From IMG/VR virus record IMGVR_UViG_2541047715_000004: a DNA stretch of 64,000 bases; one strand, written 5' to 3'. The position numbers were made by a program, and so were the translations under genes. The notes under the pieces are model-generated. The model saw only the letters and a list, made by a program, of their open reading frames with translations, had not been told where the DNA came from and ran no database searches. Source of the DNA: a virus (Duplodnaviria > Heunggongvirae > Uroviricota > Caudoviricetes). This document shows positions 16,128 through 29,701 of this stretch, in pieces (position 1 is the stretch's first letter; each line of letters opens with the position of its first letter).

Positions 16128-16248
16128 AGCGCATCCTTTGTGCCGTCTGGCAAGGGCCGGAAGGGCTTTAAGGGCGACTTCCGGCGTGTAAAAAATAGTC
16201 TCTATATAGACCGGATGTTAAGGTGATCCGGTCGGTAGCAATGGTCAA

Positions 16249-17496
16249 TTAGTTACTGATAGTTTCAGGTTTGGGAAAACTGAACAGTAAATCACGATAG
16301 TACTCGTATTGTTTCTGGCGCAACTCGATTTCACGCGGAAGACCTTCGGTGATGGAATTGGTCAAAGCATCAAATTTATCCAGTAATTTCACTATTTTTT
16401 GTTGTTCAACTAGCGATCTTTCAGGAGAATCAGGAAATGGTACTGGTATCATAAGTTTTCTTAAGTTATCATTATAAAGTCTTTTAATAGTTCCACCTTC
16501 AGATATTCCCCATTTTGCTATTTTATAGAAATAGAATAAATATTTATTTAAAACTATTTTTTCATTATTTTCAATCCAGACAATATTGCTATCCTGGAAA
16601 TATGATTCCCTACCATCAAATATAACAGTCCTGCCGATGGTCCCACTGGCAGAAATCAATACTTCGCCAACTTTAGGATAACTATATTTTTCTTTAAATT
16701 CATTAAATAGTTTTCTAGATATATAGGAATCGGGTTCCTTACCAAATGTCCCAATTTTATAAAATGGAATCTCTCCCTCAGAAGATGTTTGTGATTTTAG
16801 GATTCGTTTACACATACGAACTTCACCAATTTCCCCCAAAGCTTTCCACTCAACCTCACCCTCTTTAAAACTCAACAACTGGTCGCGATAGTAGTTGTAT
16901 TGTTTTTTACGCATGCTAAGCTCAGCGGTAAGCTCAGCGGTAAGTGCAGTAAATTTATCCAGAATCCTGACGATTTCAGACTGGATAGCCAGCGACTTTT
17001 CCGGGTTGTTGGGGCAAGGGATGGGGATAAGTAATTTACCTATATCTTTAGCATACAAATGATAAACAGTAGAACCTTTAACCATTTGCAATATCTTTTT
17101 TTTGTTATTTATTATGAAATTACTTAGATATCTACCATCAACACCAGAGCATCTAATAATCAAAATATCGCCGCCTAAAATAACGCCACTTTCTTGAATG
17201 CAACTAGCTGTAGCCAAACCTCTTGGTGTAACGTCTGACGTTGGCATTAGAACATCATTTTTTTCAGATAGAATTGACTCATTGATTGCTTGGTTTGTTT
17301 TTGAGCATACTTTGTCAATTATGGGACCATAATGAGTGAAAAGCTCACCGTAATGAATACAATATCTATTGCCATCTGGAGTTATTTTTTCTTTAGGTAA
17401 AGACTTCCCTTTTAAAAAAGTTGCTAATTTATTTAATGCTACCCACTCAACCTCAGCCCCATCCAGCAGTTTTTCCAGATAACTCAGCTCGCTCAT
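16249..17496 (-). CDS. hsdS: type I R-M specificity subunit, type IC with two divergent TRDs
   Basis: Conserved N-terminal, central ([29 protein letters not shown]) and C-terminal ([41 protein letters not shown]) regions; AT-rich variable TRDs. Confidence 0.95.
16918..16941 (-). repeat. 2 x 12-bp tandem repeat in hsdS central region, encoding TAEL-TAEL
   Basis: + strand AAGCTCAGCGGT twice, then a degenerate third copy. Confidence 0.85.
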
Positions 17497-19055
17497 GCCT
17501 GTACCTCGCTACCTTCAATCTCAGCAACAATCGCATCAATATCTTTACGCAACTGGTCGATTTTGCTGACCGTGGTTTTCAGCTCAGCATTCAGCTCAGC
17601 GATATCGATAATTTCGCGAGTATCTTTCGCTTCCACATAGCTGCTCACCGACAGGTTATAGTCATTCGCGACAACAGTCTCAAACGCAACAGATTTCGCC
17701 AGATGAGCAACATCTTCCTTGCTGGCAAATACCTGCATAATCTGTTCGATATGAGCATCGGTCAGAATGTTGTTGTTAGTCTCTTTTTTGAACAGTTCGC
17801 TGGCATCAATAAACTGAACTTTGGTATCCGTTTTATGTTTAGACAGCACCAGAATATTGACGGCAATAGTGGTGCCAAAGAACAGATTCGGTGCCAGTGA
17901 AATCACGGTTTCGACATAGTTATTGTCGACCAGATACTGACGGATTTTCTGCTCCGCGCCGCCACGGTAAAAAATGCCTGGGAAGCAGACAATCGCAGCG
18001 CGACCTTTGGCCGAAAGATAGTTCAGCGCATGTAATACAAACGCAAAGTCAGCTTTGGATTTGGGGGCCAGAACGCCAGCCGGGGCAAAACGTTCATCGT
18101 TAATCAGCGTCGGGTCATCGCTGCCAATCCATTTCACCGAATACGGCGGGTTAGAAACGATGGCATCAAACGGTTTTTCATCTCTGAAGTGCGGCTCAGT
18201 CAGTGTATTACCCAGCTTGATATCAAACTTGTCGTAGTTGATGTTGTGCAAAAACATGTTCATACGCGCCAGGTTATAGGTCGTATGGTTGATTTCCTGA
18301 CCAAAAAAACCTTCTTCGATGATATGGTCATCAAACTGTTTTTTCGCCTGCAACAACAGCGAACCGGAGCCTGCTGCCGGGTCGTAGATTTTGTTAACGT
18401 GGGTCTGCCCGTGCATAGCCAGTTGTGCAATCAGCTTAGAGACGTGCTGCGGTGTAAAGAACTCGCCGCCGGACTTACCGGCATTCGCCGCATAGTTAGA
18501 AATCAGGAACTCATAGGCGTCACCGAACAGGTCAATCTGATGTTCATGGAAGTCACCAAGTTTTAGCCCTTCAACCCCTTTCAGAACCGCAGCCAAGCGG
18601 GCATTTTTATCTTTAACGGTGTTACCCAGGCGGTTACTGGTGGTATCGAAATCAGCAAACAAACCTTTGATGTCAGCTTCTGAAGGATAACCGTAAGCAG
18701 AACTTTCGATAGCAACGAAGATGCTGTTTAAATCTGCATTCAGTCTGTCATTAGTATTTGCTTTCGCAGCTACGTTGCAGAAAAGCTGACTGGGGTAGAT
18801 GAAGTAGCCTTTAGTTTTGATGGCATCGTCTTTAATGTCATCAGTAATTACGCTGTCATCCAGTTTCGCATAACAGATACTGTCATCACCGGCTTCAATA
18901 TAACTGGAAAAATTTTCGCTGATAAAACGGTAAAAAAGCGCGCCCAAAACGTACTGCTTAAAATCCCATCCATCGACTGAACCCCTGACATCGTTAGCAA
19001 TTTGCCAGATCTGGCGATGAAGCTCTGCACGTTGTTGAATACTTGTCATTTTCAT
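17493..19055 (-). CDS. hsdM: type I R-M N6-adenine DNA methyltransferase subunit
   Basis: 520 aa; motif [14 protein letters not shown]; stop overlaps hsdS start (ATGA). Confidence 0.95.
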
Positions 19056-29214: not shown

Positions 29215-29701
29215 ATTCGCCTTTATGTAGAAAAAACATCGGGAAGCTGGTGGAATCCAACCAGCGGTTGTCGGACAGGTGAGCGGGGAAAATTATGATG
29301 ACTTTCGTCGCCTGAGACATCCAGATTTCTTTCGTAGCGTAATCACATATGTGATTAAGTGGTGTGATTATGTGAAAAATCACGCGCACATAATACGAGA
29401 GCGGATACGGAACAAAACAAAATGCCGATCCGCGCCGACAATTAAACGCGGATCACATAGCAAGAATAAAAGCCAATGATTAACCATACACCATAACGCA
29501 ATATAACGCGATTTAAGCGCGTTAATGCGCTAAGTAATGGGTATGTACTGGTAAGGATATAAAAGCGCGTCTATGGCGTTATTTTGGCGCTTATTTTTAT
29601 GTTGTTGGTGTGAGTCAAAGACAATAAAAAAAGCGCCATCATTGGCGCGTTATGGTGGAAGTATTGGAAACGAAAAAAGCGCCCATAGTGGGCGCTCGAT
29701 T

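Follow-up and report, generated by a model that had tools for sequence, protein, structure and literature searches.

Two- and three-copy forms of a TAEL repeat in a type IC hsdS gene of Escherichia coli phage-plasmids and plasmids

Introduction

Does the short tandem repeat in the hsdS gene of this viral DNA change its number of units in nature, and would such a change alter the sequence that the enzyme recognises? The question is raised by a 12-bp repeat coding for the tetrapeptide TAEL in the window, by which is meant here the whole analysed stretch of 64,000 nucleotides. The switch between two and three copies of this repeat reportedly goes back to Price et al. 1989 and has since entered the textbooks, and constructs with four copies reportedly have relaxed, promiscuous spacing.

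According to the account of Loenen et al. 2014 (PMC3874165), EcoR124I has two 12-bp TAEL units and recognises GAA N6 RTCG, EcoR124II has three units and recognises GAA N7 RTCG, and the change in copy number is attributed to unequal crossing-over. The same account gives three TAEL copies for EcoDXXI and EcoPrrI, regards three as the apparent optimum, and states that, in hybrids of EcoR124I and EcoDXXI, altering the repeat number by engineering shifted the recognition sequence in the predicted way (PMC3874165). Such a tetra-amino-acid tandem repeat in the central region is described as a feature of the type IC HsdS (PMC3874165, PMC10030836), and the rule that two copies give N6 and three give N7 has been repeated later (PMC7383803, PMC12707154, PMC10030836, PMC6789123).

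The initial annotation of the window had stated that the repeat number, two versus three, shifts the spacer of the EcoR124-family target through unequal crossing-over, which is the account given in PMC3874165, and had described the locus as poised for the same switch. The copy-number switch is already known, and the interpretation of the annotation is supported as the established one; the TAEL finding opens no new question. The new content presented here is limited to population evidence, namely that several backgrounds, phage-plasmids and plasmids, carry the allele with two as well as with three copies, and that the natural range of the repeat extends from one to eight copies.

Results

The hsd operon and its relation to EcoR124

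The type IC family has classically been defined by subunit complementation and cross-hybridisation. In the window, three genes lie on the minus strand in the order hsdM–hsdS–hsdR, and they show the order and the hsdM–hsdS coupling of type IC operons: the stop codon of hsdM and the start codon of hsdS overlap by 4 nt (ATGA), and hsdR is located 121 nt downstream of hsdS. The genes and the conserved regions of HsdS are as follows.

17493..19055, minus strand: hsdM, ORF of 520 aa; Pfam N6_Mtase and HsdM_N
16249..17496, minus strand: hsdS, 415 aa; Pfam Methylase_S (1.8e-39); same protein as RefSeq WP_001293038.1
16843..17028, minus strand: central conserved region of HsdS, residues 157-218; long helix spacing the two TRDs, near-identical to the EcoR124 HsdS 7bst_A
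16252..16425, minus strand: C-terminal conserved region of HsdS, residues 358-415; partner helix
13011..16127, minus strand: hsdR, 1038 aa; Pfam EcoR124_C, T1R_D3-like, SWI2_SNF2 and HSDR_N

HsdM and HsdR of the window are about 99% identical to the EcoR124 proteins with solved structures, the former differing from the EcoR124 HsdM (7bst_D) at 5 of the 519 aligned residues and the latter matching the EcoR124 HsdR (2w00_A) from end to end with 2274 bits. HsdS consists of an N-terminal conserved segment, TRD1, the central conserved region, TRD2 and the C-terminal conserved region, so that two variable TRDs are placed between conserved regions and the TAEL repeat is central, as in a type IC specificity subunit. 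In comparison to 7bst_A it is near-identical at residues 1-18, at about 156-218 and at about 364-415, with divergent stretches between these, TRD1 showing no alignment to the EcoR124 HsdS and TRD2 aligning only weakly. Homology to the central region of the EcoR124 hsdS, which had been named beforehand as a check on the proposed relationship, was found as a nearly residue-for-residue alignment with 7bst_A. Also at the DNA level, the repeat unit ACCGCTGAGCTT and the upstream flank ending in CTGCACTT match the published mutagenesis primers for the EcoR124II hsdS, accgctgagcttaacatgcg and ctgcacttaccgctgagctt (PMC10644984).

Because HsdM, HsdR and the conserved regions of HsdS are near-identical to those of EcoR124 and the DNA of the repeat unit is shared, the system belongs, by its sequence, to the EcoR124 family (type IC) and has new TRDs. 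The likeness to EcoR124I/II (EcoR124/3, plasmid R124) covers the gene order, HsdM, HsdR, the conserved regions of HsdS, the unit ACCGCTGAGCTT and the TAL lead-in preceding it. The differences are that both TRDs of the window differ in sequence, for which reason the half-sites should not be GAA and RTCG, that the residue after the repeat is Ser in the window and Asn in EcoR124 (a single A-to-G change), and that the carrier is an SSU5-type phage-plasmid and not R124.

The carrier element

The window is 99.2% identical to NZ_CP103659.1 over 25 kb and, as judged from this similarity, comes from an SSU5-supergroup phage-plasmid of E. coli measuring about 110 kb. In the annotation of NZ_CP103659.1, genes for tail, tape-measure, capsid, portal, terminase and ParB proteins adjoin metG, apbC and the hsd operon. 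The window (cf. positions 37000-86900 of NZ_CP103659.1) also includes a homologue of the theta subunit of pol III, a HumD/S24 peptidase, thymidylate synthase and nrdB. The two- and three-copy forms of the allele are found on elements of several kinds: IncFIB elements of the SSU5 type (about 110 kb), IncY-typed plasmids with phd/doc (about 95 kb) and an IS-rich plasmid of 64 kb.

The repeat tract

The plus strand at 16918-16941 reads AAGCTCAGCGGT twice, and the reverse complement, ACCGCTGAGCTT twice, is in frame in the minus-strand hsdS ORF (16249-17496) and codes for TAEL-TAEL. The tract and its flank are described by three features.

16941-16930 and 16929-16918, minus strand: two perfect 12-bp units ACCGCTGAGCTT, coding for TAEL-TAEL, HsdS residues 186-193; the element varying in number
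16917-16944, no strand: full perfect period-12 tract of 28 nt, 2.3 copies (Tandem Repeats Finder)
16950-16942, minus strand: ACTGCACTT, coding for TAL, a 9-nt relic of the unit that matches it at 7/9 positions and has no Glu codon (GAG)

Tandem Repeats Finder detected the tract at 16917-16944 with a period of 12, 2.3 copies, 100% matches and a score of 56, the highest of only three arrays found in the 64 kb of the window. The chance expectation of a perfect 28-nt tract of period 12 is about 1.7e-5 per 64 kb, and none of 300 first-order Markov simulations produced a tract of 28 nt, the longest being 24 nt. The hsdS repeat is real and far beyond chance. A further array, a 13-bp tandem repeat TGTGATTAAGTGG, is located at 29350-29374 of the window (1.9 copies, 91% matches, Tandem Repeats Finder score 43).

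The annotated 12-bp tandem repeat, TAEL twice, in the central spacer of hsdS was confirmed, the coding strand, which had been left unstated, being the minus strand. The annotation had further counted two copies and a degenerate third. Two perfect units are present, but the supposed third copy, ACTGCACTT, was found also in the EcoR124 HsdS and in every allele of the family read here as DNA, and it is therefore a fixed flank matching the unit at 7/9 positions and not a countable copy.

Two- and three-copy forms of the allele

The exact two-copy hsdS was present in 36 of the 39 full-length matches in complete E. coli genomes, one copy with an unrelated frameshift being counted, and the exact two-copy HsdS protein was found on at least 1000 contigs. 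Four records, NZ_CP031294.1, NZ_AP022163.1, NZ_CP097183.1 and NZ_MG904996.1, included an hsdS with three copies, 1260 nt in length as compared to 1248, and all four are annotated as WP_094310829.1. When one unit was removed from each of the four genes, 0 differences from the window remained over 1248 nt; these are otherwise identical hsdS genes differing by the number of 12-bp units alone, as in the switch between EcoR124I and EcoR124II. The comparison with related hsdS alleles, which the initial annotation had proposed, thus recovered natural two- and three-copy versions of the exact gene. An exact look-up of the one-, three-, four- and five-copy versions in a collection of 15 billion proteins found only the two-copy protein; as the collection missed also the existing RefSeq protein WP_094310829.1 (three-copy), its negatives are weak evidence.

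The 6-kb hsdM–hsdS–hsdR region was aligned from nine sequences, that is, the four three-copy records, four two-copy records and the window. The nine operons divided into four haplotypes separated by 46-173 substitutions, and each haplotype included a two-copy/three-copy pair.

Window and pYLMB53a (two-copy), p15ODDR (three-copy): 0 substitutions over the 6-kb operon
Isolate-162 plasmid P2 (two-copy), pGD31-F25 (three-copy): 1 substitution over the 6-kb operon, 1 over 8-11 kb including flanks
pYUSHP6-3 (two-copy), pYUSHP31-2 (three-copy): 0 substitutions over the 6-kb operon, 3 over 8-11 kb including flanks
pRHB34-C14_2 (two-copy), pWP5-S18-ESBL-08_2 (three-copy): 2 substitutions over the 6-kb operon, 3 over 8-11 kb including flanks

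No SNPs were present in hsdS and the 3' part of hsdM in the nine sequences, every variable site falling within hsdR or the 5' part of hsdM. The SNP-free block extends over about 16130-18150 (hsdS and the 3' 660 nt of hsdM), and it is surrounded by 5' hsdM and hsdR sequences that differ by 46-173 substitutions. This pattern suggests a mosaic, in which the hsdS allele would have moved recently between operon backgrounds via homologous recombination.

The near-identical pairs on four backgrounds point to recurrent switching, and the simplest reading of the alignment is that at least three or four independent changes from two to three copies have taken place in the window allele. As hsdS and the 3' part of hsdM are free of SNPs, a transferred three-copy patch would be indistinguishable from four de novo events. 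The proposal that the locus is poised for the EcoR124-type switch is supported directly by the four records with the same hsdS and exactly one additional unit, found on four backgrounds that occur also with two copies.

Many plasmids (H72-H80; L032, L040) share the central region, TRD2 and the C-terminus of the gene (nt 472-1248, 98.6% identity) and have a different TRD1, a pattern read here as modular TRD exchange at the conserved regions. A repeat-linked frameshift was considered for two records with matches of 1244 nt and was ruled out, neither change involving the repeat: one has a 4-nt deletion in TRD1, the other scattered 1-nt indels typical of assembly noise. The 4-nt deletion, of GTGT at hsdS nt 353-356 in NZ_JBWDPT010000001.1, leaves a C-terminal pseudogene and an N-terminal ORF of 122 aa. 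In type IC systems, truncated HsdS proteins are known to form dimers with palindromic specificities.

Copy number in related genes

Matches to the 189-bp central region were found in 1233 E. coli records. Sixty of these, sampled at even steps, differed in length from the window by 0 (32 records), +12 (23), +24 (two), +72 (one) and +1 (two). Three of the sampled alleles were read: the two with +24 have four TAEL copies and intact genes, and the one with +72 has eight TAEL copies and an IS1 near the 5' end of hsdS.

The scan of IMG/VR for the TAL-TAEL 21-mer detected 36 loci, 25 of them with two copies and 11 with three. When metagenomes were scanned for four or more copies, four loci were found, with 4, 5, 6 and 6 copies; the four-copy gene is intact and both six-copy genes look truncated. 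Among representative genomes, one for each species, six genes were hit, in Enterobacter (two species), Shigella, Kluyvera, Mixta and Shewanella. Each has one or two exact units, followed in the Shigella gene by two further TAEL units with ACA as the Thr codon. Family-wide, the number of TAEL copies ranges from 1 to 8, mostly being 2 or 3, and many unrelated TRD combinations carry 2, 3 or 4 copies. A search with the 71-aa central region of the protein returned 117 hits, nearly all of them short partial sequences (47-125 aa) and biased to the two-copy query, for which reason the copy-number distribution was taken from the DNA length differences and the pattern scans instead.

Gene integrity was compared between L005 (NZ_CP050036.1), L061 and L063 on the one side and L006, L007 and L062 on the other, the four-copy genes being intact and the six- and eight-copy genes appearing disrupted. 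The apparent damage is an IS1 insertion at the 5' end, loss of the N-terminus or truncation of TRD2. On this small sample of three long-tract genes, long tracts may be confined to dead genes.

A second 12-bp duplication, present in hsdM, served as a control.

17578-17600, minus strand: GCTGAGCTGAAT GCTGAGCTGAA, coding for AELN-AELK, HsdM residues about 486-493, in the C-terminal helical part

This duplication was present in two copies in 38 of the 38 related loci, its units having drifted synonymously in diverged alleles, and it occurs also in the EcoR124 HsdM. Since it is fixed in all 38 loci, the variability in copy number is specific to the hsdS tract.

Discussion

The locus is very probably a TAEL repeat of variable copy number, situated in the central helix of a type IC specificity subunit and carried by an SSU5-type phage-plasmid of E. 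coli. The compared sequences indicate that the switch known from EcoR124 has taken place, probably repeatedly, in a widespread present-day hsdS allele on E. coli phage-plasmids. In the proposed mechanism, the central helix holds the two TRDs at a fixed distance, and identical units could mispair, either through replication slippage or through unequal exchange between sister or plasmid copies, so that one unit would be gained or lost with the reading frame kept. The change of one unit would then give a different specificity with both half-sites unchanged.

For the window allele, two copies should place the methylated adenines 7 nt apart (N6-type) and three copies 8 nt apart (N7-type), a prediction drawn from the data tabulated for EcoR124I/II and EcoDXXI in PMC12707154. 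The segment from DKF to R(K/Q)KQY has 13 residues in the two-copy central helix as against 17 in the C-terminal partner helix, and with three copies the central linker has 17 residues, equal to the partner helix. When misaligned by one unit, the two-copy tract still pairs over 16 nt and the three-copy tract over 28 nt, and losing a unit should therefore be easier than gaining one. A switch would leave the host genome without the new methylation; type IC enzymes are reported to be tolerated on entering an unmodified cell, owing to control at the level of assembly (PMC12707154), and such control would make the switches survivable. What speaks against this explanation is that a fast contingency locus would be expected to have more than two copies, and that the two-copy form dominates the allele.

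The pathway of the change may equally well be RecA-independent replication slippage or misalignment of sister strands as RecA-mediated unequal crossing-over. Efficient RecA-dependent exchange in E. coli is usually cited as needing roughly 20-30 nt, and changes in short tandem duplications are typically due to RecA-independent slippage; only 16 nt pair in the two-copy tract when it is misaligned by one unit. On the other side, the sequence holds nothing that discriminates between the pathways, multicopy or replicating phage-plasmid DNA supplies partners for exchange, and the classical literature, as presented in PMC3874165, credits unequal crossing-over. Slippage is considered at least as plausible as the classical pathway.

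It is unlikely that the repeat is instead a static structural spacer, changed by a single rare event from two to three copies and spread thereafter as a three-copy patch by homologous recombination, with no recurrent switching. The absence of SNPs from hsdS and the 3' part of hsdM across four diverged operon backgrounds would fit this, the block clearly having been moved by recombination recently, as would the mosaicism at the level of TRDs, some records sharing nt 472-1248 with a different TRD1, and the rarity of the three-copy form of the window allele. However, at least three additional recombinations would be needed, each with a recipient within 0-3 substitutions of its two-copy twin over 8-11 kb, and the members of one pair were sampled two years apart in a single city and from a single type of host. 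Also the occurrence of 2, 3 or 4 copies in many unrelated TRD combinations fits recurrent change at the repeat itself. Assemblers can miscount tandem repeats, and the related record CP059946.1 has 1-nt indels scattered through it, as is typical of noisy long-read assemblies, but it is extremely improbable that the three-copy records are assembly or consensus artefacts with no real polymorphism behind them, given four independent submissions (Viet Nam, Japan, China, Switzerland) each with exactly +12 nt in frame and otherwise identical, a tract of 28-40 nt, far below any read length, and a 2/3 polymorphism described in PMC3874165 as experimentally established in EcoR124I/II.

Recurrent switching, the preferred reading, could be extended to the view that the TAEL tract of SSU5- and P1-group phage-plasmids is a real contingency locus that keeps mixed subpopulations of N6 and N7, occasionally N8, specificity, the four-copy form being functional with altered or relaxed spacing and genes with six to eight copies being dead. 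This wider view is tentative and on balance doubtful. It draws on the four events apparent in a set of about 45 records that are nearly identical, and on the intact four-copy and seemingly disrupted six- and eight-copy genes. If it were true, the contingency locus would diversify the host defence spectrum and the methylation signature that the phage-plasmid carries into new hosts.

The window locus itself is not classed here as a contingency locus of the phase-variable SSR kind, the tract being short (2.3 copies) and the two-copy form dominant. Phase-variable SSR-containing hsdS and hsdM genes (phasevarions) are similar in that the repeat number in a type I gene changes the methylation output (PMC7383803). 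They differ in that their tracts are long, are made of units of 1-7 nt and shift the frame, turning expression on or off, whereas the 12-nt unit of the window is in frame, is present in 2-3 copies only and would change specificity rather than expression.

Closer counterparts are found within type IC. The natural two- and three-copy pair of otherwise identical genes corresponds to that of R124 and R124/3 as described in PMC3874165. EcoDXXI and EcoPrrI, compared here by their published description, have the same architecture, with three TAEL copies and 8 nt between the methylated adenines (PMC3874165, PMC12707154); the window allele has two copies, and its three-copy variant would match their state. 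In the type IC system NgoAV of Neisseria gonorrhoeae, the number of LEAT/EATL repeats in the centre of HsdS sets N6 versus N7 in natural isolates (PMC6789123, PMC10030836). NgoAV differs from the window in the repeat sequence and the organism, and its specificity depends also on a downstream frameshift truncating HsdS.

One small in-frame slip would be enough to give a new restriction target, and would re-arm the system against phages and plasmids already bearing the old methylation. The result is useful for annotation and for the interpretation of methylomes, because the two- and three-copy variants should be given different recognition sequences. In this connection, the PDB entry 7bst_A is labelled 'EcoR124II specificity protein' yet has two TAEL copies (404 aa), which in the literature corresponds to EcoR124I, and the label is a trap in annotation transfer.
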